Assembly: GCA_036339735.1 (NCBI GenBank)
Contig: JAYZAL010000049.1
Span: forward strand, 1 to 58,241
Direction of reading: 5' to 3'
DNA length: 58,241 bases
DNA from: Candidatus Poribacteria bacterium
GTDB lineage: Bacteria > Poribacteria > WGA-4E > UBA9662
The notes below the pieces were generated by a model. The model saw only the letters and a program-made list of their open reading frames with translations, was not told where the DNA came from and searched no databases. Position numbers and translations under genes: made by a program. Below are positions 11,018 through 58,241 of the stretch, in pieces. Every line of letters begins with the position of its first letter. The stretch's first letter is position 1.

Positions 11018-11626
11018 TTGGCTGACTTACAATTTAGACTAGCTCCCAAACAATTCCAACTCTCTTTGCGATGTAGTGTTCATAGTCAAGCTAAGTCTCA
11101 GTCTCTTCAACTCAATTTAATATATAACAAACTGAGGTATAACGCTGAAAATATACAATTTTCGATTGGTTATATTAAGGAGTTATTGCGTTCAGAGTCA
11201 GATAAACTCCGCCCATTGCATAATAGAGAAGTGTTTATGCCAGAAGTAGTTAACAAAGACTGAATTAGCTTCACCACAGGAAGCAGGCAGTACTTCATTG
11301 GTTGCACTGTCTAACATAGGAAGCGGATTTTCCTTCTAAGACTATTAATGGTTATAAAGATACCCACAAATTACTTTTAGAGATATTAGGTAATCAGCCA
11401 ATGAGTCAAATCACCGATGTAGATGCTAGGAAAGTGGTAAATGCTATAAAACAATTACCGCACAATCGGAGTAAGTCTTATCCCAAGCTGAGCACTATTA
11501 CAGCTAAAGAATGTCAAACTACCAAGTCATAAAACCATTCTGAAACATGTTGAAAGAATATCCACTTTATTTAAATGGGCTATAACAAAGGGATATATAC
11601 AGCAAAATATCTTTAAAGGTATTATT
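11018..11626 (+). pseudogene. Degenerate tyrosine integrase (N-terminal and core-binding part), homolog of 55224-56867
   Basis: Fragments DLQ..KQFQLSLRC, YIKELLRSE, LLLEILGNQPMSQI...IKQLPHNRSKSYP and ISTLFKWAITKGYIQQNIFKG match the intact integrase; stops and frameshifts; catalytic domain missing. Confidence 0.85.
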
Positions 11627-11627
11627 T

Positions 11628-12665
11628 TTACACTTTATTGTAAACGTTAGAGGTTAGTTTTTTACACATTTTCTGAACTTCTGTCCGATAGGATTCTTTA
11701 AATTTTTCATCTCCCATTACTTGAACGCTACTACCCCAAGCTAGAACTTGTCTGAGTAAGCCTTCCTGTCCATCAGTCTCAAAATGTAATTCGAGATAAT
11801 CCTTTTCCAATTCTACTTTCTGTTTCAAACTGGTAAAATTCTGATGTCTAACCCAGCGGGAGGCTGGTGGGCCGACTCTGACTACTGCCGAAACTATTTC
11901 TTGATTACGTACGCCACCGAATCCAGCATCAGCGTAGGCATTCAGATCAAAGTCAATTGGTTCCTCAAATGACTCGCTCAGACTCTCTAAATTTTGTAAT
12001 CGACCATCAAAATTAAATTGACGAATATCGCGTCGTAGATGACAGAAACCAACTAGCCGAAGCGCATTATAGGCATAATAGATTCCGTAAGGATCAACCT
12101 TACGTTTAGTTGTTACCCCATGTGTAGTTGATCGGTAGGTTAAATACACTCGTTGTCGCTGGCGATAGGCAATTTCGGCAATTTCGATCAAGGGGGATAA
12201 TCGCTCCATATCCTTCAACTGAGGAAAACGGAAAGCAAATGCTTGTTTAGACTCATTGATAAACTGATCATTTTCTGCTGGTATCGATTGACGAATTTTT
12301 GCCATGGCTCGACGAAAGTATTGGTAATGTGGGGTGCCTGCCAAAAAATTTAATGCTTCTTCTGCCAAAATCAAGGCCAGACTTTCTCTCTGATTTATCT
12401 TCACTTCGGGGTAAGGTAGTTTATACCCTTCTTTGAGACGCCAAATGGTCACTTTACCATTTTTCCCTTTTAAGACCGGAAATTGAGATAAACTGAGATC
12501 TAGCATGTCTCGCTCAATCGTACGAATCGATACTTGGCATAAATCAGCTAACTGAAGTTTTGTGGCACCAATTTGGCCGCAACGATCTAACTCTTTTAGT
12601 ATCATCCACTGTCGTTCAACTTGTTTTTCCTCAGCAATTTTGACTGGCAATTTTAGTAACTCCAA
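11628..12665 (-). CDS. HTH-WYL-WCX transcriptional regulator (PafB/PafC/DriD-like)
   Basis: LADLCQVSIRTIERDM wHTH; RKVDPYGI...LVGFCHLRRDIRQF WYL domain; VLAWGSSVQV WCX-type tail. Confidence 0.9.
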   Translation of the reverse strand: MELLKLPVKIAEEKQVERQWMILKELDRCGQIGATKLQLADLCQVSIRTIERDMLDLSLSQFPVLKGKNGKVTIWRLKEGYKLPYPEVKINQRESLALILAEEALNFLAGTPHYQYFRRAMAKIRQSIPAENDQFINESKQAFAFRFPQLKDMERLSPLIEIAEIAYRQRQRVYLTYRSTTHGVTTKRKVDPYGIYYAYNALRLVGFCHLRRDIRQFNFDGRLQNLESLSESFEEPIDFDLNAYADAGFGGVRNQEIVSAVVRVGPPASRWVRHQNFTSLKQKVELEKDYLELHFETDGQEGLLRQVLAWGSSVQVMGDEKFKESYRTEVQKMCKKLTSNVYNKV

Positions 12666-14269: not shown

Positions 14270-14850
14270 GTCAACAATGGATAGTAAAAGGCGACTACCC
14301 CCAGTAAAGCTAATATAGCTACGGGGTATGGGATAAGAAAAGGGTATCAGCACCATCTGGTAATCTTTGCTTCTCCTTCTCTTCCTTGATTCTTCCTTTA
14401 ATTCTTTCATCCTAAAATCTTCCCCAATAGTTTTGCCTCGGTATACAAAACCGTATTTTTCCTGTGATTTGTGTAACCAATTAAAACTACGCTCCTTTTC
14501 GTCCATACCTGCATAAACTAGAACTACGGAAAATTCTAATAATGGGTCGTTCCGATAATCCTTTTGGATTCTTAATATGATTTGATTTACCTAATTCTGA
14601 ACGCAATCTATCTTTAATCTGGTCAATAGTAGTTCTCAGATGACCAGAGTTATCCCTCAATTGATCATAAATATATTGAGATGGATTTAAAGATAGAAGG
14701 AACGTAATGTGACTTACTTCAGAATTCCACATCTGAGAGAAAGTTGGAATTCTTTGGTGCTTAGTAGTGATTGTAGGTCTTTAGGAACTATTGAACAGAA
14801 TGGATAGCTACTACCTGTTTGACGAAAGACCAGATAGGATTTTTGAATTC
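14270..14850 (-). pseudogene. Degenerate tyrosine integrase N-terminus, second homolog of 55224-56867
   Basis: KSYLVFRQTGSSYPFCSIVPKDLQSLLSTKEFQLSLRCGILK* then SQYIYDQLRDN...TIDQIKDRLRSELGKS align to the intact N-terminus; the low-coordinate boundary is approximate. Confidence 0.8.
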
Positions 14851-44865: not shown

Positions 44866-45687
44866 ATGAAACTGAGCCAACCGAACCAGAATCTGACTGA
44901 CGATCAACTAAACACTATCGAAAATGACCTGAATCATATTGGGTTCTACATTATTGAGAATGTAATTTCGGCCGCCGAAGCTGATCAGGTGCGACAAATA
45001 TCGCTGGATTTAGCCGAAGAGGACCTGATGAACGGAAGAGATCATAGTTACGCGGATGGTAAATGTCGACGAGTTTGGGCTATTGTAGGGAAAGATCCTA
45101 TCTTTCGACGATTGATTCAACACCCGACGATTATTGATGCTTGGAAGCACATATTAGGTAATGATGTAGTAGCATCGACTTTTACTGCCAATATCGTTTA
45201 CCCTGGAGCCGAAAGTAGTGGATGGCACGTCGATTATCCTTATTGGGCCATGGAGTCACCGTTTCCTAGGGGAGCTCTGACAGGTCAAACTGTTTGGATG
45301 ATTGATGATTTTACTACTAGTAACGGGGCTACGGCTTGCATTAAAGGTTCACACCAAACTCTATCACCGCCTGATGCAGATCAAATCAGCCAGATGGAAC
45401 AAGCCATTGCTGTTGCTCCCAAAGGGTCAGTCATGTTAACCAATGGAGCAATTTGGCATCGGTCTACGGCCAATCGAACTAATCAACTCCGAGTTGGATT
45501 GTTGGGGATGTATAATCGTTCTGTAATCCTGCCACAAGAAGATATGCCTAGCCAATTGACAGATCCTGAATTAGAAAGTGAATCTGATTTACTGAAACAG
45601 CTACTGGGTCGTCAAGTGGACTACCGAAGCCCCGATTTAAGTCAAACCCGACGACGTACAGCGACAGGATTCCGCCTACATACTTGA
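44866..45687 (+). CDS. PhyH-family Fe(II)/2OG dioxygenase
   Basis: GFYIIENV, WHVD (HxD), DDFT-x2-NGAT-x4-GSH and IWH motifs; ATG 44866 avoids antisense overlap with 44364-44696. Confidence 0.88.
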   Translation: MKLSQPNQNLTDDQLNTIENDLNHIGFYIIENVISAAEADQVRQISLDLAEEDLMNGRDHSYADGKCRRVWAIVGKDPIFRRLIQHPTIIDAWKHILGNDVVASTFTANIVYPGAESSGWHVDYPYWAMESPFPRGALTGQTVWMIDDFTTSNGATACIKGSHQTLSPPDADQISQMEQAIAVAPKGSVMLTNGAIWHRSTANRTNQLRVGLLGMYNRSVILPQEDMPSQLTDPELESESDLLKQLLGRQVDYRSPDLSQTRRRTATGFRLHT

Positions 45688-46275
45688 GTCAATCCCTAGA
45701 TTTTTTGAAAACAAACGAAACTCAGGTTGGTAATGTGTCAATCACGTAATAAAGAGTATTGCGAGGCTGGCCAGTAAAAACCAAACTATTACTGGAATCC
45801 AAATAAAAAAGTAAAAAGAGTGTCGAGTCCTATCGCTGCCATTGACCGGCATCTAATCCATTTCTTTACGTATATTTTTCTACCTAATTAGATTTTTATA
45901 GTAAGTGGGTATTTGGCTCCCTTGATAACTCAAATATGTTGGTAGTGAAGAGTTCGCTTTTGTACGCTTTAGATCTTGGGTCGACGTTCGCCTATACTTT
46001 GATGAAAACTGGTCTGATATCCTACACCTGTGTTGTTCTAAATTTGGATGTTTTACTAATTTTTGATCAGAAAACATAAGTGAATCATGGAACAACATAC
46101 TCAGTCGTGTCCCTTTGAGTTTGGTAAATTTATTAGTAGTAATAGTCATTAGTACTGGTCAAAATCACTACTACATGCTGAACAAAGCATCACCAACATG
46201 ACTATAATGACAGCATGTAACTAATCGAACACCTCATCTGTTAAGTATTGTACAACATCAAGGCGTACTCGTTTT

Positions 46276-49565: not shown

Positions 49566-50726
49566 ATGTCTTTGCCCGAATTTGTACGACCAATAACTAC
49601 TTCACCGGGATATCATTGGTTTGGCTATTACGATAAACTTCAATTCGATATAACTAATCGATACGCTCTAGCCATGAAAGTAGAATTTGAGCATCGATCT
49701 CCTAACAAGGACGACTGGGTCGATATTGGTTTAATAGACCTTGAAGATAATGATGAATGGACAAAAATTGGCCAAACGACTGCTTGGTGTTGGCAACAAG
49801 GTTGCATGCTACAATGGCGACCAGGTCAAGAAAACCAAATTATATGGAATGGTCGACAAAATGATCAGTTTGTATCTCATATATTCGATATCAAAACGGG
49901 ACAAAAACGAACTTTACCCCAAGCCATATATACCCTTAGTTCAGATGGAGAGACGGCGATTGGTACTGATTTTCGACGTATCAACCATATGCGTCCGGGT
50001 TATGGATATGCCGGCATCTCTGACCCTCACCAAGACGAATTAGCTCCAGATGATTCTGGGATTTATCATCTCAACCTAGATACTGGATATCACCAGCAAA
50101 TTATATCACTGGCTGATGTAGTTCAGATTCCTTACCCACACGGAAATATTAGTCAAGCCAAGCATTATTTCAATCATCTTCTTTTTAGTCCGAAAGGTGA
50201 TCGATTTATTTTCCTTCATCGATGGAGGTTCGACGGTGGTGGTTTTCACACTCGGATGCTAACGTCTGCGGCTGATGGAACGGACATTCGGGTTGTAGAT
50301 GATTCAGGTCGTACCTCTCATTTTATTTGGAAGGATAACGAAAATATTCTGGCTTGGTCTTGGCATCCTTCTTACAAAGACAAGTTTTATCTATTTGGGG
50401 ATGGAAATGGACAAGTTGAAGTATGTGCTCCCCAGATCATGGTAGAAAATGGCCACTGCTCATATTTACCAGACAGTAATTGGATATTGAACGATACCTA
50501 CCCAACAGGAAATTCTTACCAAGAACTTTATCTTTATCATTGCCTAACCAACCGAAAAAAACGTTTGGTCAGCTTTCCGGCCTTGTCAGTCTACAAAGGT
50601 GAATGGCGTTGTGATTTACATCCGCGTTTTAGCCGAGATGGCAAATGGGTTACTGTAGATTCTGCTCATCAACATGGTCGACAAATATATTTAGTGGATT
50701 TAGTTGCGGCTGGAATATATGACTAG
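49566..50726 (+). CDS. TolB-like / oligogalacturonate-lyase-like beta-propeller protein
   Basis: HWFGYYDK, WQQG-x-MLQW, NH-x2-FSP-x-G, GH-x-S, DTYP and RCDLHPRFSRDG motifs. Confidence 0.7.
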   Translation: MSLPEFVRPITTSPGYHWFGYYDKLQFDITNRYALAMKVEFEHRSPNKDDWVDIGLIDLEDNDEWTKIGQTTAWCWQQGCMLQWRPGQENQIIWNGRQNDQFVSHIFDIKTGQKRTLPQAIYTLSSDGETAIGTDFRRINHMRPGYGYAGISDPHQDELAPDDSGIYHLNLDTGYHQQIISLADVVQIPYPHGNISQAKHYFNHLLFSPKGDRFIFLHRWRFDGGGFHTRMLTSAADGTDIRVVDDSGRTSHFIWKDNENILAWSWHPSYKDKFYLFGDGNGQVEVCAPQIMVENGHCSYLPDSNWILNDTYPTGNSYQELYLYHCLTNRKKRLVSFPALSVYKGEWRCDLHPRFSRDGKWVTVDSAHQHGRQIYLVDLVAAGIYD

Positions 50727-50815
50727 ATCAGATATGAATGAAGTTAGACTTTTTTCATTCGAGGTGTATTTCGACCAGCATAAAAATATGTCTCTAACCA
50801 ATTGTATCACCTAGT

Positions 50816-51010
50816 ATGAAAGAATTACTTAAAAATCCTTCCTTCTGGTTTCGCTTAGTATTACCGTTGTGGATTTTTATCGTCGTTCCTTTGATAATGA
50901 ACAAATGTAGTAAAAAATTAGGAAGATTTGGAGGTCATACATTTATTTGGTTGGTCTTAGGTTTACTTCCGGTAGTATTTAGTACTATTTTGATGCTGTT
51001 TACTATATAG
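50816..51010 (+). CDS. Small two-TM hypothetical protein
   Basis: Two hydrophobic helices joined by a basic loop. Confidence 0.5.
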   Translation: MKELLKNPSFWFRLVLPLWIFIVVPLIMNKCSKKLGRFGGHTFIWLVLGLLPVVFSTILMLFTI

Positions 51011-51316
51011 CTGTTTGCTCTAATTGGATCAGTATGAAAAAGAAATCTTAAGGCACGAGATTCGTCTTCTCACACCTCTAAACGTTCACTGGTCTTTGAT
51101 TAAAAGGGGCTAACGTTGTTCTGATAAACGCTTGTAGCAAGCCAAAGGCCGTATGTAATAGTAGGTTGAAAACTGATTGTTTTTTCTACTTCTTCTGAGC
51201 AAACTCAGTTTTTTATTCAAAACTAATCTAACTGTTTGGGTAGGGACGATAAAATGTCATTATTCCAAAGTATCAATAACTAAAAATGTCTTTTCAACCT
51301 AAATACAAATAGCATG

Positions 51317-52648
51317 CTAATAGGTTTTCGCGTCTTTTTGCCTCTTTTCTAGTGTGTTAGTCCAATTACGTTCAGGTTCACCATCTAATATTTTGTCAAC
51401 CAGTTCATTAGGCTGCCCTTTCCGTTTGATCAAATCAAATTCGTCATAAATATGACCCGTTGCCGTCATTGCTTTGTAGTTTAATTTATCTTTCTCGACA
51501 CTTATAATTTGGTAGAGTTGAGTGTTTTCAGCACCTCTTGTCATCCACCGATCTTTACGAAGTTTATATTGTTTGGGACCACTAACCGAAACAACATAGA
51601 CGGTTCCATATTTCTCGTCTCTCACATTTACTCCGTTGCCTATGTTGTGCCCTCTTCCGTAACTATGGTCATGTCCAGTGAGAACTAAATCGACCTGGTG
51701 CTTATCTATAATTGGTTTCCATAACTCACGTAGTTTATTGTTATCTCGATTTCTTGAAGCTGAGTATATAGGGTGGTGGAAAGTTAAAAAAGACCAATCA
51801 TTAGGATTACTTGTAAGCACGTTATCTAGCCACTTTGCCTGCTTGGCCAGATCTTGATTTGAATTGAGTGAAATAATCCTAGCTCCTTGGTAATCAATAA
51901 AATAAACAGTTTCTTCCAGCCCTTGCGGCCCGTTCTTAGGCAAAGTAAAGTGAGGTTTCCAAAGGGTTGATAAACTTTCCGTTCCATTATTATTTGTTGT
52001 GTATTCGTGGTTGCCTGGAGTCGCGATAATGGGGACTTGGGCATGAATCCAACTTCCAGCTTGGAACCATTCCTCCCACTCACTATCATTATTGGCATTA
52101 TTGACTAAATCGCCAGCATGTAGCAGGAAAGCTGATTGTGGTGCATCTAGGATTGAACCTCGAATAACTCTAGACCAAAGAGATAGCAAATTATTCTGTG
52201 CATCACCAAAATAAATAAAACTAAACGAACCACTATTTTTACTCGCAGTTCGGTATTGGTACCACGCACTCCAAACTTTTTCTGATCCAACTCGGTATGC
52301 ATACAATGTGTCAGGTTTTAATTTAGAAAATGTAACAGAATGAAAATGAGCACCATACTTACCTTGATTCCATTTCTCTGTTTTAGCGATAACCTGAGTA
52401 CGCCAGGTTATAAAATTGGCTGAATCATCAGCAATGGCAATCTCAGCGTATGCGTTTTCGATATTCGTACTAGTACGCCAAGTTACAGATATTGAGGTTG
52501 TAGGATCATCAGACCAGTTCAATGCAATTCGACTTGGGATTTCACTAGGTTCAGGGTTTACCATTGCACGGTAATATTCACTAGCAATCAAATTGGATGT
52601 AACTAATACTAAGACAAATTTAATTAATAAATTCAGACATTTACTCAT
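51317..52648 (-). CDS. Purple acid phosphatase-like metallophosphoesterase with FN3 N-domain
   Basis: GDAQ, AGDLV, GNHE, FHHP and GHDH-x-Y-x-R motifs; L-x-PDT-x-Y-x-YRVG; signal peptide. Confidence 0.9.
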   Translation of the reverse strand: MSKCLNLLIKFVLVLVTSNLIASEYYRAMVNPEPSEIPSRIALNWSDDPTTSISVTWRTSTNIENAYAEIAIADDSANFITWRTQVIAKTEKWNQGKYGAHFHSVTFSKLKPDTLYAYRVGSEKVWSAWYQYRTASKNSGSFSFIYFGDAQNNLLSLWSRVIRGSILDAPQSAFLLHAGDLVNNANNDSEWEEWFQAGSWIHAQVPIIATPGNHEYTTNNNGTESLSTLWKPHFTLPKNGPQGLEETVYFIDYQGARIISLNSNQDLAKQAKWLDNVLTSNPNDWSFLTFHHPIYSASRNRDNNKLRELWKPIIDKHQVDLVLTGHDHSYGRGHNIGNGVNVRDEKYGTVYVVSVSGPKQYKLRKDRWMTRGAENTQLYQIISVEKDKLNYKAMTATGHIYDEFDLIKRKGQPNELVDKILDGEPERNWTNTLEKRQKDAKTY

Positions 52649-52770
52649 AATCTAACAATTGACCCAAGGGTATAAAATACTTTTTCACTTTTACAATGCA
52701 TAACTTATTGTTTCTTTTATATACAGGGCAGTATGTTTCCATCTGACATTTAGATATTGATCTATTGGAG

Positions 52771-54231
52771 TTAAGGTATGTATAGTACAAAGTTACTCCA
52801 CTTTTCATTCATCTGAACTGTAACCCGTATGAGATTTTCACTAATAGTACTAAGCTCAATTGAGCCGTCATAAATAATGGGAATGATTCTTTCACCCACT
52901 TTGTCAACTACTCCTCTTTTCCCATCTTTTTCAACTATAGCCAATCCCAGTTGTTTGGAAATTTGATCATAAAGGAGAGGAAATTCAATTTGATCATAAA
53001 GGAGAGGAATAATGATTTTATGGGTTGTATCGATCACACCCCATTTACTCTCTTTCTTAACTATGGCTAATCCCTGTTTATTGAAAGATTCAGATTCAAT
53101 TTCGTCATAAAGGAAAGGAATGATGATTTTATGGGTTGTATCGATCACACCCCATTTACTATCCTTCTTAACTATGGCTAATCCCTGTTGATTGAAAGAT
53201 TCAATTTCGTCATAAACAGGAGGGCTGATTTGCTTACCTTTTGCGTCAATCAGTCCTAATTTTCCATCTTTTTTAACTAAGGCTAATCCTTTTTGATTGA
53301 AAGCCTCAATTTCATCGTAAACAGGAGGAGTGATTTCTGTACCTAGTAGGTTTATAATTCCCATATTCTCATCCTTCTGAACCAAAGCGAGTCCTTTTTG
53401 ATTGAAGGGGGAAATTTCGTCATAAACAGGAGGAGTGATTTCTGTACCCATTAGATCTATAATCCCCCATTTCCCACCCGAAATTACCCCATAATCATTT
53501 TTTTTTCCTCCAGTATTGACTTTAAGAAAAAAAAAGTTTCCGTCATGATCAATAAGAGGGATCAAGTCTTTACCCATTAGGTCTATAACATTCTGCTTTC
53601 TATCCTTATTAACTTCAATCATGTTAAAAAAATCAATCGCCGAAGGTAATGAAATAATTTCTTTTCCAGTTTGGTCAATAAAACCCGATTTCCCATCTTT
53701 CCTAACCAGAGCTAACCCATGTCTGTTGAAAGAACTAATGTCGTCATACACAAGAGGAATAATTTCTTTTCCGGTCTGGTCAATAAAACCTGATTTCCTA
53801 TCTTTCCTAACCAGAACTAACCCATGTCTGTTGAGAGAACCAATGTCGTCATATTCATTAACCATCTTTCCATTTGTGTGAATAAACCCAACATTCTCTC
53901 CATTTTTGACTAGGGCGACCAATTTTGAATCATTTCCGCTAAAATAACTGTAAAAAAACTGACCTAATTCATCAAAAGTAGGTTCTACTATTACTTGTCC
54001 TTTTCGATTGATCAAGCCCCACCGTTTACCTATTTTGATAGGAGCAATATCCCCAATGAATTCACCTACTTCATTAAATTTTGGTTTAATGATAATTTCT
54101 TCTGTAGTAGGACTTATATAACCCCACAGCCGTAATTCTTTGTTCTCATATGGAACCAGTTCGACTTCTTGAGCGACTGACACAAAACAACCTACAAATA
54201 AATAAATTAATAGATACCGGAAGAAATTCAC
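52771..54231 (-). CDS. Secreted WG-repeat protein
   Basis: Repeated GLA-x-V-x-K-x2-K-WG-x-ID...P-x2-YD-x-I; GGAGG RBS before the GTG start. Confidence 0.9.
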   Translation of the reverse strand: MNFFRYLLIYLFVGCFVSVAQEVELVPYENKELRLWGYISPTTEEIIIKPKFNEVGEFIGDIAPIKIGKRWGLINRKGQVIVEPTFDELGQFFYSYFSGNDSKLVALVKNGENVGFIHTNGKMVNEYDDIGSLNRHGLVLVRKDRKSGFIDQTGKEIIPLVYDDISSFNRHGLALVRKDGKSGFIDQTGKEIISLPSAIDFFNMIEVNKDRKQNVIDLMGKDLIPLIDHDGNFFFLKVNTGGKKNDYGVISGGKWGIIDLMGTEITPPVYDEISPFNQKGLALVQKDENMGIINLLGTEITPPVYDEIEAFNQKGLALVKKDGKLGLIDAKGKQISPPVYDEIESFNQQGLAIVKKDSKWGVIDTTHKIIIPFLYDEIESESFNKQGLAIVKKESKWGVIDTTHKIIIPLLYDQIEFPLLYDQISKQLGLAIVEKDGKRGVVDKVGERIIPIIYDGSIELSTISENLIRVTVQMNEKWSNFVLYIP

Positions 54232-54619
54232 TGGGGCCTCCGTATAAATTACTCTCAGTTAGAAAAAACAGAGCCCTGAGGTAAGAAATAAAATAGTTGT
54301 GAAGGAGATAAGTTTTGGGAAAAGTAAAACAAACTGGATATATCGATAAGAACAAGTGGCCGATAGTAGGGGGCAGAAGTTAGTTTCAGCTAAACGACAT
54401 CGTGTAAAAGACAAACCATATGAGCATCTGAATAAACTGATTTATCTTATTGCGTGTATTGTCGGTTCTCGGTACCTTCCCGAGACTTGAACAACAAGGA
54501 TCAACGACCAGTACAAAAGGCGTAGCACACAACACCTATATTACAGGATGATTATTTCTACCGGATCTTCTTCGAACGAATTGTTGTTAACAAGAGCCAA
54601 ACTTGTTTGATGGATTGAA

Positions 54620-54844
54620 TCAAGCCATCAAGTCAAGTTGGTTACCAATGAGCTTTGGGAAGCGTCGGTCGGTCAGCTTGCGTTTTTCAACTCCATCCTC
54701 ACTGTCATCTGTCGTCTCGGTTTGAGTCATTTCTTTAATCAAATACTCAGCTTCATCTTCTAACTGAACGTATCTTTCTTGCGTCATGTTGTGCGATGCT
54801 AATGCAAGAGCAACTTTATTGTTCTCAACCGATAGAGCTTTCAA
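54620..54844 (-). CDS. Possible small acidic hypothetical protein
   Basis: AAGGA before a TTG start; protein-like composition; no family recognised. Confidence 0.3.
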   Translation of the reverse strand: MKALSVENNKVALALASHNMTQERYVQLEDEAEYLIKEMTQTETTDDSEDGVEKRKLTDRRFPKLIGNQLDLMA

Positions 54845-55195
54845 TGCTTTTTCCTTTATTTTCTACATGATAACACTTTCAAATTTTCAAATCAAATTTA
54901 ACCTGTCTCAATTTTTGTTTTGGTTTAGCATGCATGGAAGAGATAATCAAATGCGACGCACTTTGTGAATATTTGTAAGCAAAATGAAAAGGTCACAGCA
55001 AAAACACTTCTGAATGCAAAAAAATTAGCCCAACTACACAACTGTTTACAGGTTTGATTTATAAAGGCTGAGGAAAATTGACAGAGAGTCTTACTTAAAC
55101 TCTTCCATTAAACTCCTCCACTTTATCACAAAACCAGTCATAGACTGAACTTAGATTTTTTCCCTGATACGAATTTGAACTCTTTTGTCCAATTT

Positions 55196-55216
55196 GGACA
55201 CACTCGAGGACACACT
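55196..55216 (+). repeat. Direct repeat GGACACACT x2 (12-bp period), candidate integrase arm-type site
   Basis: Directly upstream of the integrase ATG; related ACACAC-N6-ACACAC on the minus strand at 14933-14952, upstream of the integrase remnant. Confidence 0.6.
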
Positions 55217-55223
55217 TTGTATC

Positions 55224-56867
55224 ATGAATCCATCTTATCTCGTCCATCGTAAGTCTGGAAGTTCCTACCTTTTTCGTTCTATAATCCCTCTCGATCTTCA
55301 ACCTATACTTCAATCTCGACAGTTCCAATTGTCTCTGGGTTGTGGTATTCTCCAACAATCTAAACAACTCTCTTTTTACCTCCATCAGATAACACAGTCT
55401 ATCTATAGTTCAATTCGAGAAAACCCTCAGATGAAGAAACTAACCATCAATGATATCAAGGATATTTTAAGAACTGAACTGGAAAAATCCAAACGACATG
55501 TCCAACACTATTATCTAGGTACTAACCGATTTAGTGAAACCGATCGACTCAAGAGTATTCTCAATAATCAGGAACAGGAAGATCAGTTTAAAGATAAGTT
55601 GAAACAGGATTATCGACAAACCTTGAAGGAAATCAATCCTAAAGTCCATCAGGTTTTAGAGGAACAAGGATATGATCCTGTAAAGGTTGACTCTCTAGAG
55701 TTTAAACAACTCAGGGAGGAATTAATTCAATTAAAACTAGATCAGTTTGAACAGAAACGAGTTTTATTAACTGGAGAACCAGATTCAGTTGAAACAGTTG
55801 ATTCAGTTGATTCTCAACCAGTTCCATCAGTAACTACTATCCAAGATAATCCAGACTCAATTGAGTTATCTGAGTTGTGTGACCGTTTTATTACCAGTCG
55901 AGAAGAAATGGGTACTACCTCCCAAACCATTTCAGATTATATCTATTCCACTGAATTACTCCTTGATGTCTTGACTGATATTCCAATCAGTAGTTTGGGT
56001 CATCAACATGGACGAGAGTTAGTTCAGGTTCTGAAGAAACTACCCAAGAATAGAAACAAATACCCAAATCAGACCATCGATGATTTGTTAAAAATGGAAA
56101 ATGTTGAAGTCTTAAGTGACAGTACCATCAAAAAAATCTTTAATAAGATTTTGACCCTGTTCAATTGGTCGATTAATCAAGGGTATCTGTCACAGAATGT
56201 TTTCAAAGGAAAACTGGATCTGACTCAAAAGAAACAAGTCATTGAGAAACATTTCACTATCAGTGAGTTAGAACTGATCTGTGGAGATCAACTCAAGAAA
56301 CAATCCTTAAACAAGAATAGACCCGAAAGATACTGGATTCCCATGATCTCCTTGTATTCGGGGAGTCGTCTGAATGAAATTTGTCAGATGAACCTATCGG
56401 ATATTGAAGATCAAGATGGAATTTGGGTGATGAAAATAACCAATGATTCTGAGGATAAGAGTGTGAAAACTCAATCAGGAAACAGAGTAGTTCCACTCCA
56501 TCCCCAGTTAATAGATTTGGGATTATTGGATTATGTAGAAGAAATCAGGAACAGAAAAGAAACCAAACTTTTTCCTAATCTGAAGAAGAGTCAAGTTACC
56601 AGTTATGGATCTCAAATTGGACAGTGGTTCGGTCGGTACCTGAAAACCCTTGGGATTAAAAAGAAAGGGAAGAATTTCCATAGTTTTCGACATACCGTAG
56701 TTAACCATCTGACTTCCAAACAGGTCTATCAACCCTTTATCAAAGAATTAATTGGACACTCACACGGAACCATGACCATGGATGTCTATGGTGGTAGGAA
56801 ACCACTGGAAGTTTTACTCCATGAATGTGTGGTTAAAATAGACTATGGACTCGAAAATATAGACTAA
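55224..56867 (+). CDS. Tyrosine recombinase/integrase with DUF6538-like N-terminus; alanine-free and GpC-free
   Basis: Catalytic R (SGSRLNEI), K (VKT), HxxR (FHSFRH), H (IGHS) and Y (DVYG) all intact; N-terminal YL...Y-x-FR-x2-IP-x-DL; ATG 55224 preferred over TTG 55185. Confidence 0.93.
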   Translation: MNPSYLVHRKSGSSYLFRSIIPLDLQPILQSRQFQLSLGCGILQQSKQLSFYLHQITQSIYSSIRENPQMKKLTINDIKDILRTELEKSKRHVQHYYLGTNRFSETDRLKSILNNQEQEDQFKDKLKQDYRQTLKEINPKVHQVLEEQGYDPVKVDSLEFKQLREELIQLKLDQFEQKRVLLTGEPDSVETVDSVDSQPVPSVTTIQDNPDSIELSELCDRFITSREEMGTTSQTISDYIYSTELLLDVLTDIPISSLGHQHGRELVQVLKKLPKNRNKYPNQTIDDLLKMENVEVLSDSTIKKIFNKILTLFNWSINQGYLSQNVFKGKLDLTQKKQVIEKHFTISELELICGDQLKKQSLNKNRPERYWIPMISLYSGSRLNEICQMNLSDIEDQDGIWVMKITNDSEDKSVKTQSGNRVVPLHPQLIDLGLLDYVEEIRNRKETKLFPNLKKSQVTSYGSQIGQWFGRYLKTLGIKKKGKNFHSFRHTVVNHLTSKQVYQPFIKELIGHSHGTMTMDVYGGRKPLEVLLHECVVKIDYGLENID

Positions 56868-57036
56868 TCTAACATATTCAGTAATCGGTCAAACTCAGAT
56901 AATTGACCAGTTTATTATTTTTTAATAATAACAGTATAGAAAAACCATACATAACGGGCATAATCGATTGAGTAGAGTTTTAAGACCCTACTCAGTTATC
57001 TAGAGTTACTAACATTTAGTATAAAAGGAGTATGTA

Positions 57037-57324
57037 ATGAAATTTTTATCTACCTTTAAAATTACCCAAGGATTTGATGCTTGGTTAAAAATGTACAAAG
57101 AGATTGAACCCGACTTAAACGAATTAGGTATAAAAGTTCTCTGGGCAGGAACAAATTCTGATGAAACTAAAGTATTTGATGTTACAGAAGTCAAAGACCC
57201 ATCGAAATTTGAAGTGCTTACGAAACGTAAAGATATTACTCAAAAGAGAATTGATGCTGGTGTTGAACTGGAAAGTCAGGAAGTAATTGAGACAATAACT
57301 AGAGATTATTGGGCAACAGACTAG
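57037..57324 (+). CDS. Small hypothetical protein (possibly DUF3764-like alpha/beta barrel)
   Basis: AAGGAG RBS; TFKI-x3-FD-x-W...GIK-x-LW-x-G pattern. Confidence 0.7.
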   Translation: MKFLSTFKITQGFDAWLKMYKEIEPDLNELGIKVLWAGTNSDETKVFDVTEVKDPSKFEVLTKRKDITQKRIDAGVELESQEVIETITRDYWATD

Positions 57325-57665
57325 TTGATTTAATCTTGTGAAAATAGAAATCATCAATTATGTCTAAGACAATATCTTTCTATTCATTTCTTCCCACAAT
57401 TTTTTAATAATAAAAGTAACGAAAAGAATACGTAACGTACGTAATCAACGTAATCGGTGGTGGTTATTGAGTATCACCACCCTATTTACAAAACCGAACC
57501 AATATGCTAAAAACCCTTATCTCCAATGTGATAAAAGTATCAACACAATGGTGCAATTAGAACTAATCCCCCTCAACCACGATGGTACGGAAAAGTCAAT
57601 GCCTGACAAAATAACACTCCAACTGTCACCACCGAATTTATTGAACTGGCAAAGGTCAAATTCAG

Positions 57666-58241
57666 TTGAAGTTTGAAGTTCAAGTCCGACGGACCAACCG
57701 TCGCAAAACTGCTGCCATCCAAGTCCAGCAGGGAGTGGTACAGGTGGTAGTCCCTCAAACCTTATCCCAACAAGCAATCGATGACCTGATTGCTAAAAAA
57801 TCTAATTGGATCCGACAGAAATTGGTACTGCAACAATCGGTTCCAGTTAGCAAACCCAAACAATTTGTCTCGGGTGAATCCTTTACCTATTTGGGACGCA
57901 ACTACCGATTAAAAGTGCTAACCGGTCAGTTGCAACCAACCAAACTGAAATACGGATATTTGCAAGTAACAGTACCAGCAGAACAGAAATCGGATTATCA
58001 ACTGATCCGACACCAACTTCGAGACTGGTATCTGCATCGTGCCATAGATAAACTGGAAACTAAGACCATCAAATATGCGGACAAAATGGGTCTTCAACCA
58101 ACCCAGATCAAGGTCAAGGAATACAAAAGTCGGTGGGGCAGTTGTAATAGCAGAGGTCAGATCAGTTATAACTGGAAGATTATTATGACTCCGCATCGGA
58201 TCATAGATTATGTGGTGATACACGAGTTATGTCACCTGATC
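57666..58241 (+). CDS. YgjP/DUF45 (M48-like/SprT) metal-dependent hydrolase, truncated by window end
   Basis: Open frame from TTG 57666 to the end, missing from the ORF track; GE-x-F-x-YLG, KSRWGSC and IDYVVIHELCH (HExxH) motifs. Confidence 0.9.
   Translation, partial: MKFEVQVRRTNRRKTAAIQVQQGVVQVVVPQTLSQQAIDDLIAKKSNWIRQKLVLQQSVPVSKPKQFVSGESFTYLGRNYRLKVLTGQLQPTKLKYGYLQVTVPAEQKSDYQLIRHQLRDWYLHRAIDKLETKTIKYADKMGLQPTQIKVKEYKSRWGSCNSRGQISYNWKIIMTPHRIIDYVVIHELCHLI

Follow-up and report, generated by a model that had tools for sequence, protein, structure and literature searches.

Why does an intact integrase gene of a marine bacterium contain no G followed by C at any position, so that its predicted enzyme has no alanine? 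The gene lies in a contig of Candidatus Poribacteria bacterium (assembly GCA_036339735.1, contig JAYZAL010000049.1, positions 1 to 58,241 of the forward strand), and this whole stretch of 58,241 nucleotides is the window referred to below. A preliminary description from the sequence alone reported that GpC is missing between the GC at 55067-55068 and the GC at 56958-56959, and this observation is confirmed. The window has 2,111 GpC, and its only long gap is the one between these two sites (1,891 bp), while the next longest gap in the window is 218 bp. The tract at 55069-56957 (1,889 bp) has 0 GpC, whereas its own base composition predicts 62.2 (Poisson P about 1e-27). In the whole genome (4,320,033 bp, 107 contigs), which had been named beforehand as the place to look for similar tracts, the next longest GpC-free gaps are 538 and 386 bp. 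These two are adjacent, on contig C77 of the assembly at 45164-46088, and the 538-bp gap lies beside a decayed copy of the same integrase. No other dinucleotide has a free tract longer than 429 bp, and the genome-wide GpC obs/exp is 0.99.

The dinucleotides CG, GG and CC occur in the tract (obs/exp 0.50, 1.21 and 1.22), as the preliminary description stated, and no other 3-mer or 4-mer is anomalous. Its statement that GpC is common on both flanks holds only in part. GpC is common upstream (obs/exp 1.36 in the last 500 bp), but it is below par downstream (0.51 in the first 500 bp and 0.60 over 1,374 bp).

The gene at 55224..56867 (+) encodes a tyrosine recombinase of 547 aa, with the 547 codons at 55224-56864. 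All three codon phases are empty of GpC. Alanine makes up 6.5% of residues in long ORFs of the genome and 0 of 547 here. About 14 AGC, TGC, GGC and CGC codons are expected from genome codon usage and 0 are seen. In addition, 96 codons end in G and 131 start with C, which predicts 23 G|C codon junctions; 0 are seen, and none of 20,000 codon-order permutations gave fewer than 8. The constraint therefore acts on the nucleic acid and not on the protein.

The protein matches the phage integrase profile PF00589 over residues 372-522 with 58.2 bits, against a cut-off of 27.1. The segments SGSRLNE, KTQSGNR, HSFRHT, GHSHG and MDVY align with the corresponding segments of the solved recombinases 4a8e (XerC-like) and 6en0 (Int protein), and comprise the catalytic R, K, HxxR, H and Y, in line with the claim that the catalytic residues are intact. 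An AlphaFold2 model from 15 sequences has a mean pLDDT of only 48.6, with confident residues only at about 211-320, and is too poor for a fold search. The N-terminal DUF6538 domain (PF20172) scores 21.6 bits in this protein, below the cut-off of 27, whereas many relatives carry a precomputed PF20172 hit. Remnants of a related integrase of the normal-GpC type, with the motif FKWAITKGY, are found at 11021..11680 (+). The comparison made in the preliminary description, WAI in the remnant against WSI in the intact protein, holds for the part at 11495-11680. A remnant of the N-terminus of a related integrase lies at 14583..14842 (-).

The integrase faces inward at one end of variable cargo. Homology among related loci starts about 135 bp upstream of the ATG, which marks the left edge of the island, and ends at the stop codon. 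The upstream flanks of the loci are unrelated, while downstream cargo is shared within subgroups. The conserved GpC-free leader at 55088..55223 (+) holds direct repeats at 55095-55120 and palindromes at 55134-55148 and 55186-55200, and its 5' end aligns with the 3' end of tmRNA in a relative. However, no direct or inverted repeats were found that bracket the tract convincingly, and an Rfam search found nothing in 50000-58241. The window has 0 tRNA or tmRNA genes, and none lie next to the depleted-clade loci. In contrast, tmRNA (loci L012 and L002) or tRNA-SeC (loci L019 and L024) is found next to relatives with normal GpC. These comparisons concern the left end, as the right end of the island is not assembled.

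The spacer after the stop codon, at 56868..57036 (+), has one GpC, at 56958. It is followed by a cargo ORF at 57037..57324 (+), which has a weak DUF3764 match below the cut-off and lies in the 1,374-bp downstream stretch with GpC obs/exp of 0.60. A YgjP-like metallopeptidase gene at 57666..58241 (+) is cut by the contig end and has an obs/exp of 0.69. On the other side, a WG-repeat protein gene at 52771..54231 (-) is partly GpC-depleted, with 20 GpC seen and 44 expected (0.45), and has 12 Ala in 486 aa. It is separated from the integrase by 830 bp of normal GpC. Only 18 of 14,139 windows of 900 bp in the genome fall below 0.45. They merge into six regions, one of which holds the WG-repeat gene, and four of which lie on the two contigs that carry depleted integrase copies.

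The trait is natural and inherited. Of 24 listed runs, 20 hold the stretch or part of it, and 16 marine DNA runs hold half or more of its sampled words, near-identically; these rows come from 13 studies. A contig of one DNA run covers 54764-56339 with 2 differences. Fifteen relatives at 66-99% identity have 0-4 Ala each, and diverged relatives with the same trait occur in independent metagenomes and in MAGs. Gene GpC obs/exp is 0.05-0.29 in the depleted-clade loci, with upstream flanks near 1. Between intact members, synonymous sites are saturated (dS 0.9-2.1) and dN/dS is 0.09-0.15, yet GpC stays at 0-16 per gene. The integrase of the window and that of the relative P0007 differ at 151 residues, none of which involves Ala, whereas 16.6 are expected from the normal relatives (P about 6e-8). 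Residual GpCs in relatives are mostly singletons in otherwise GC-free alignment columns.

The preliminary description treated the tract as a single-gene oddity, but it is a trait of whole clades of integrases and of at least one other gene family. A second clade of 120 integrases, several further 50%-identity clusters and an unrelated lipoprotein-like family are also nearly Ala-free, and all 33 homologs of the lipoprotein-like protein have 0-2 Ala. For the second clade, two scans of viral contigs found no relative, and tblastn against plasmids and phages gave only matches below 30% identity, so that its GpC-freeness rests on protein proxies only. In relatives that are only seen as proteins, M or W followed by P, H or Q (a forced G|C junction) is strongly depleted, with 0 seen against 18.5 expected in clade 1, and 11 outside one conserved site against 244.5 expected in all in clade 2. 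In the LG+G4 quick tree, Ala-free rows may be pulled together by composition.

The interpretation given in the preliminary description is supported in part. It held that the absence reflects strong selection against GpC in the DNA even at the cost of one amino acid, and that C-to-T deamination alone cannot produce it. The absence is indeed non-random, maintained at the nucleotide level at the cost of an amino acid, and not a simple deamination footprint. The drivers it named, a GpC-specific nuclease, modifier or toxin, or blanket evasion of GC-containing restriction sites, are unsupported or remain hypothetical on present evidence. Evasion of 4-base sites finds no echo in the host genome, where obs/exp is 0.90 for GGCC, 0.92 for TGCA, 0.97 for GCGC and 0.97 for AGCT. 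The GpC methyltransferase M.CviPI belongs to the C5-cytosine methyltransferases, and a search for this family (PF00145) found it in 0 of 7 genomes of the host family, while the control was found in 9 of 14 genomes. Cargo directly downstream of related integrases can have normal GpC (a HEAT-repeat gene, 1.1-1.3), which a shield of the whole element at the DNA level does not predict.

The explanation preferred here, although only tentatively, is that the integrase mRNA is kept free of GC so that it cannot be cut by a GC-specific, frame-independent endoribonuclease. In this view, the gene would encode a functional tyrosine integrase at the left end of a genomic island of a marine Poribacteria-like bacterium, and the inferred transcription unit (leader plus ORF) would have been under long, continuing purifying selection against GpC, strong enough to remove alanine from the protein. 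The enzyme would be an mRNA interferase of the MqsR type, from the host, an island or a phage, and the island could still make integrase, and excise or integrate, while that RNase is shutting down other transcripts. The absence of GpC in all three codon phases, its inheritance, its persistence through saturated synonymous change, and the purifying selection on the protein are established by the analysis. That selection and not mutation bias maintains the absence, that it acts on the RNA, that the transcript is spared when such an RNase is active, and which agent is responsible are inferred. The local scale fits a per-transcript benefit better than a shield of the whole DNA, as depletion starts within about 20 bp of the left edge of the island, after upstream DNA with obs/exp 1.36, and cargo directly downstream of related integrases can be normal. 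In the leader, the ORF and 90 bp beyond, 0 GC occur. Small contigs of three metatranscriptome studies lie on the gene and leader, one of them covering 55125-55317. This is only a weak hint of expression, since they cover only parts of the gene, parts without cover mean nothing, and DNA carry-over cannot be excluded. A sigma-70 promoter scan gave fewer hits than shuffled sequence and no usable start site. A search of the 7 genomes of the host family with E. coli MqsR gave only noise (E 0.28 or worse), while a search with the Pfam MqsR profile (PF15723) had no hit anywhere, including the 14 control genomes, and is uninformative. Since GpC is its own reverse complement, the strand cannot be read from the motif, and the sense-strand context of residual GpCs (GCA in 25 of 38) is the same in broken copies (18 of 30). 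Broken copies do not show clearly more GpC than intact ones (Spearman 0.21, P 0.38, n 19), and thus give no sign that selection needs a working gene.

A DNA-level agent directed at GpC, acting on island DNA while it is mobile, is nearly as likely as the RNase, though it too remains doubtful. Candidates are a nuclease or nickase, an enzyme of a helper phage that degrades host DNA, a DNA modifier read by a type IV system, or CRISPR interference with a GC PAM. Each GpC would add risk, so that the oldest, always-mobile core (the integrase and a few genes) would be purged completely, and newer cargo only partly or not yet. The depletion is graded over several island genes on both strands and over non-coding DNA, including the lipoprotein-like gene (0.07), a kinase-like ORF (0.24), a 228-aa ORF on the other strand (0.38), the WG-repeat gene, an LRR-kinase gene (0.54), and 2.5 kb without good ORFs in a related island (0.33). 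This suits a DNA-level or time-in-the-mobile-pool explanation at least as well as one confined to a transcript, and the GpC-free zone starts at the edge of the island. However, no GpC-specific bacterial nuclease is known, neither the 4-mers nor the GpC content of the host indicates avoidance, and no C5-methyltransferase was found in the 7 genomes of the host family. Cas1 was found in 1 of the 7 genomes and not in this one, and a simple script found no CRISPR array in this assembly, although MAGs often lack arrays. Kilobases of cargo with normal GpC next to the purged integrase would also remain exposed.

Mutational bias is unlikely. In this reading a GpC-specific lesion or editing process, such as a GC-context cytosine deaminase or GpC methylation followed by deamination, hits the DNA repeatedly while protein-level selection keeps the survivors functional. 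GC-context DNA deaminase toxins exist, broken copies with 3-8 stop codons stay strongly depleted (0.09-0.40) without a correlation between disruption and GpC, and non-coding island DNA is depleted as well. In contrast, at 7 alignment columns where normal relatives conserve Ala, the depleted clade has S (4 columns), T, L and G, never V, and Ala to Ser needs a G-to-T change, which deamination does not produce. At the 88 columns where a relative has GC, a comparison of living sequences only shows a transition partner (AC or GT) in this gene at 33 and a single-transversion partner at 35, which is an ordinary ratio. GT and AC are only slightly raised in the gene, and GA, TC and CC are raised as much. 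The edges of the depletion are sharp and at the scale of genes, the host genome is unaffected, and no C5-methyltransferase was found in the 7 genomes of the host family. It is very unlikely that the template is protected against a GpC-binding transcription roadblock, such as an actinomycin-type intercalator, which binds GpC steps, or a GpC-binding protein that stalls RNA polymerase. This shares the per-transcription-unit logic, the sharp edges, and the empty codon phases and leader with the RNase reading and is as hypothetical, but it has a weaker natural precedent; no evidence links pelagic deep-water bacteria to such compounds, and nothing in the loci points to producers or resistance genes. 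A cause at the level of alanine or its decoding, for example depletion or cleavage of tRNA-Ala, would account for the 0 Ala here and 0-4 in relatives, but it is contradicted by the junction and synonymous-codon counts and by the empty non-coding leader. An assembly, chimera or synthetic-DNA artefact has nothing in its favour beyond the oddity itself and is contradicted by the independent runs and the diverged relatives.

It is about as likely as not that marine bacteria or their phages harbour a still undescribed agent that reads the bare dinucleotide GpC in RNA or DNA. A large, old pool of island genes, including several integrase clades down to about 30% identity and at least one unrelated lipoprotein-like family, would have answered by deleting GpC altogether, resulting in natural enzymes built from 19 amino acids. 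The GpC-free gene set would then act as a bioinformatic beacon for finding the agent and for mapping which genes an island must express while it is active. Motif avoidance by mobile DNA is known, but no description was found in the literature searched, supplementary files excluded, of a total, clade-wide purge of a dinucleotide that costs a protein family one of the twenty amino acids; such files may hold lists of motif-free transcripts that bear on the precedent. The finding would imply a strong, persistent, GpC-specific selective agent in abundant ocean bacteria that nobody has named. It also gives natural, functional-looking 19-letter tyrosine recombinases (dN/dS about 0.1), which are of interest for studies of reduced amino-acid alphabets and as recombinase genes that should be immune to GC-cutting RNases. 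Finally, GpC-free tracts over 1 kb or Ala-free proteins offer a simple signature with which to find the rest of the system in metagenomes.

Restriction-site avoidance in phages and mobile elements also purges a self-complementary word from mobile DNA, with the oldest parts purged most. However, the word here is only 2 bases long, the host shows no avoidance of GC-containing 4-mers and no C5-methyltransferase, adjacent cargo can have normal GpC, and avoidance of this kind is not known to remove an amino acid. In dinucleotide depletion under a nucleic-acid-sensing defence, a footprint is likewise imposed on a genetic parasite by a motif-reading host factor (PMC12582503). Examples are CpG in RNA viruses against ZAP and the target-motif footprints of APOBEC3. 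Those are eukaryotic systems with partial depletion, whereas here it is total, in a bacterial island gene, and without a transition-type footprint. With tycheposons, the locus shares a tyrosine recombinase at one end of variable cargo, and its normal-GpC relatives sit directly after tmRNA or tRNA-SeC, but no such gene lies next to the depleted clade; the text of the tycheposon paper has no mention of 'alanine', 'dinucleotide' or 'codon'. The precedent for the preferred explanation is the sparing of cleavage-site-free transcripts by mRNA interferases, as with MqsR and GhoT mRNA ('differential mRNA decay'). MqsR cleaves mRNA at 5'-GC-3'/GCU without sub-codon bias, and a transcript that lacks this motif survives when the toxin is active (PMC9636575, PMC13409141, PMC8546651). 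No cognate RNase was found for the integrase in the searches above. GhoT is a short mRNA that lacks a trinucleotide, whereas here a 1.9-kb unit lacks the whole dinucleotide in every codon phase and in the leader, one amino acid has been given up, and the trait is kept across clades down to about 30% identity.

The window is a whole contig (C49) of 58,241 bp, belongs to a genome of 4.32 Mb in 107 contigs, and contains 2,111 GpC dinucleotides. The single long gap runs from the GC at 55067-68 to the GC at 56958-59 and comprises 1,891 bp, while the next longest gap in the window is 218 bp. The GpC-free interval reported in the preliminary description is thus real. Across the genome, the next longest gaps are 538 and 386 bp. 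These two are adjacent (C77:45164-46088, on a second contig of this genome) and lie beside a decayed copy of the same integrase. No other dinucleotide has a free tract above 429 bp, and the GpC obs/exp of the whole genome is 0.99. The composition of the tract itself predicts 62 GpC (P about 1e-27), and no other 3-mer or 4-mer is anomalous in it.

The ORF at 55224-56864 (547 aa) has no Ala codons, whereas long ORFs of the genome contain 6.5% Ala. It has none of the AGC, TGC, GGC, and CGC codons, of which about 14 are expected from genome codon usage, and no G|C codon junctions, of which 23 are expected; none of 20,000 codon-order permutations gave fewer than 8. The conserved leader of 135 bp is empty too. 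The constraint acts on the nucleotide sequence and not on the amino acid, as a cause acting on alanine or tRNA-Ala cannot produce this pattern.

The encoded protein matches the Pfam family Phage_integrase at 58.2 bits (cut-off 27.1), with a DUF6538 match below threshold. The segments carrying R, K, HxxR, H, and Y align with a XerC-like recombinase (4a8e) and the Int protein of 6en0. A structure model from 15 sequences was poor, with a mean pLDDT of 48.6, and was not used. Between intact relatives, dN/dS is 0.09-0.15 with dS of 0.9-2.1, and thus the protein is under purifying selection and synonymous sites are saturated.

The tract is natural and inherited. Of 24 listed sequencing runs from 13 studies, 20 hold the stretch or part of it, and 16 DNA runs hold half or more of its sampled words. 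A contig of one DNA run covers 54764-56339 with 2 differences. Among 120 of 205 homologous hits, the 15 at 66-99% identity have 0-4 Ala, whereas the relatives of about 451 aa at about 55% identity have 10-32 Ala. The DNA of relatives includes some loci that are the same record reached twice (L031=L033, L032=L034) or near-copies (L014/L016, L013/L020/L039). In the depleted clade, the GpC obs/exp of the gene is 0.05-0.29 with upstream flanks near 1, while two intermediate loci have 0.46-0.56 and the 451-aa relatives have 0.7-1.1. Within the phylum, 7 of 176 genomes match at E of 1e-30 or better, and all 7 are in one family (6 of 6 genomes plus this one); two hits among genome contigs are labelled Candidatus Poribacteria. 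The protein of the window and the relative P0007 differ at 151 positions with no Ala on either side, against 16.6 expected. At 7 columns where normal relatives conserve Ala, the depleted clade has S (4 columns), T, L, and G.

Homology among the depleted-clade loci begins about 135 bp upstream of the ATG (window about 55088) and ends at the stop codon. Upstream flanks are unrelated even between genes that are 96% identical, and downstream cargo is shared within subgroups. The integrase therefore faces inward at the left end of an island; the contig ends 1.4 kb after the gene, leaving the right end of the island unidentified. Normal-GpC relatives, including the paralog of this genome on contig C29, sit directly after tmRNA or tRNA-SeC. 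Two loci of relatives lie next to tRNA-SeC, L019 (2381-2474 and 8592-8675) and L024 (5807-5900), and the two tRNA-SeC calls of L019 are 6 kb apart, as expected for an island flanked by a duplicated target. The depleted clade has no such neighbor, although its leader aligns with the tmRNA 3′ end of a relative. Three fragments of related integrases of the normal-GpC type lie on the same contig as the intact gene, at window 11021-11680 and 14583-14842, which suggests repeated island insertion and decay here.

The trait is wider than this gene. A second integrase clade of about 600 aa is 27-30% identical to this one. Of 491 hits, at least 120 are 58-100% identical to each other and have 0-10 Ala (0.6% overall), and twelve of these have none. 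This large clade (P0087, P0121-P0237), examined as proteins only, mostly sits on contigs of 2-3 kb, and its nearest Atlas clusters are labelled Pseudomonadota and Uroviricota. Of 148 representatives of 50%-identity clusters, ten have 1.1% Ala or less, seven of them being over 500 aa, and all the others have 2.4% or more. A quick LG+G4 tree was built of 81 rows, comprising 47 chosen rows and 34 drawn at random from the remaining representatives of 440 aa or more. All 23 Ala-poor rows fall in one 35-row clade (SH-aLRT 97) together with 12 normal rows, and at least 3 state changes are needed, although attraction by shared composition cannot be excluded. As a protein-level proxy for junction GpC, M or W followed by P, H, or Q was counted. 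Clade 1 has 0 against 18.5 expected, clade 2 has 101 (90 from one conserved site) against 244.5, the Ala-free representatives have 1 against 10.7, and the normal representatives have 151 against 222.8.

Depletion also occurs in other genes. An unrelated lipoprotein-like ORF of 155 aa (G000:C77:45486-45950 in this genome, or L058:2487-2951 in the extracted locus), with a signal peptide and an LFSC lipobox-like motif, lies directly downstream of the decayed integrase on C77. It has 1 GpC against 14.7 expected, and all 33 of its metagenomic homologs (57-94% identity) have 0-2 Ala, which makes it a second gene family with the trait. In the genome, only 18 of 14,139 windows of 900 bp have an obs/exp below 0.45, and these merge into 6 regions. 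Four of them lie on the two contigs that carry depleted integrase copies: the integrase itself, the WG-repeat gene 0.8 kb upstream of it, and two regions on C77. The cargo at L058:3360-5591 on C77 includes a 743-aa LRR + HisKA + HATPase + receiver hybrid kinase (0.54), and an LRR gene also follows the integrase in the related locus L032 (0.30). The ORFs at L058:7349-8035 on C77 and L067:1187-1972 (G059:C104, a related genome) are homologous, encode 228 and 261 aa with no Pfam family, and are both partly depleted (0.38 and 0.43). In both genomes they lie a few kb from the lipoprotein-like gene. In another related genome (L065, G062:C143, 9600-16630), about 6.7 kb around and following an integrase remnant is GpC-poor. 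It includes a kinase/APH-like ORF of 270 aa with 3 Ala (0.24) and 2.5 kb without good ORFs (0.33), and is interrupted by a 2-kb gene for a 665-aa membrane protein with normal GpC (0.92). In contrast, the HEAT-repeat gene directly downstream of several related integrases has 1.1-1.3.

Active maintenance is indicated by the saturated synonymous sites, as intact genes nevertheless hold only 0-16 GpC, by residual GpCs that are mostly singletons in otherwise GC-free columns, and by amino-acid divergence that is free of Ala. The replacement of Ala by Ser, Gly, Leu, or Thr and never by Val, the ordinary ratio of transition to transversion partners (33 to 35), and the lack of a single dominant product dinucleotide are against a deaminase-type footprint. 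However, the choice between selection and mutation is not settled, and broken copies are not clearly richer in GpC than intact ones (Spearman 0.21, P 0.38, n 19). Residual GpCs in the relatives' loci L010, L013, L022, and L023 are clustered in one part of each gene rather than spread evenly (15 of 16 in the 3′ 40% of L010; 23 of 25 in the 5′ half of L023), which hints at mosaic recombination between GpC-free and normal homologs.

The host shows no avoidance of GC-containing 4-mers. A PF00145 methyltransferase was found in 0 of 7 genomes of the family, while the control was detected in 9 of 14. Cas1 was found in 1 of 7 genomes and not in this one; the positive genome, G058, has four Cas1 matches (C42, C119, C122, C196). 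No CRISPR array was found in this assembly with a simple script. These results weaken restriction, methylation, and CRISPR-PAM readings for these hosts. The interpretation in the preliminary description, strong selection against GpC with a GpC-specific nuclease, modifier, or toxin or restriction-site evasion as candidate drivers, is partly supported.

The only described bacterial agent with GC-level specificity that could be documented is the mRNA interferase MqsR. Escape of the transcript from such an RNase is the mechanism tentatively preferred here, as a transcript-level benefit would explain the zero count, the sharp left edge, and the normal neighboring cargo. Even so, no homolog was found with the E. 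coli protein in the genomes of the family, and a Pfam search for MqsR was uninformative, with no match even in the control genomes. GpC-poor genes on both strands and GpC-poor non-coding DNA fit a DNA-level, time-in-the-mobile-pool reading about as well, and a DNA-level agent is rated only slightly less likely. Mutation bias is considered unlikely, and a template roadblock very unlikely, with the remaining probability left unassigned. The absence of GpC in every codon phase, its inheritance, and the purifying selection on the protein are shown by the sequences, whereas selection on the motif, an action on the RNA, and the nature of the agent are inferred. Small RNA-library contigs from three studies lie on the gene and leader, which is a weak hint of expression. 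The deepest cover by contigs of three metatranscriptome studies is found just upstream of the island edge, at window 54400-54858. This stretch has an ORF of 74 aa on the minus strand (54623-54844), no Pfam or Rfam match, and normal GpC, and may be an expressed small gene or an RNA.

Full-text literature searches for GpC-free or alanine-free integrases and for GpC avoidance in phages found nothing relevant, and the tycheposon preprint does not mention alanine, dinucleotide, or codon in its text, supplements being outside these searches. The integrase itself is an ordinary member of a known family. In comparison with motif avoidance in general, the total and heritable purge of a dinucleotide, with loss of an amino acid across clades and in a second gene family, is extreme and apparently undescribed.
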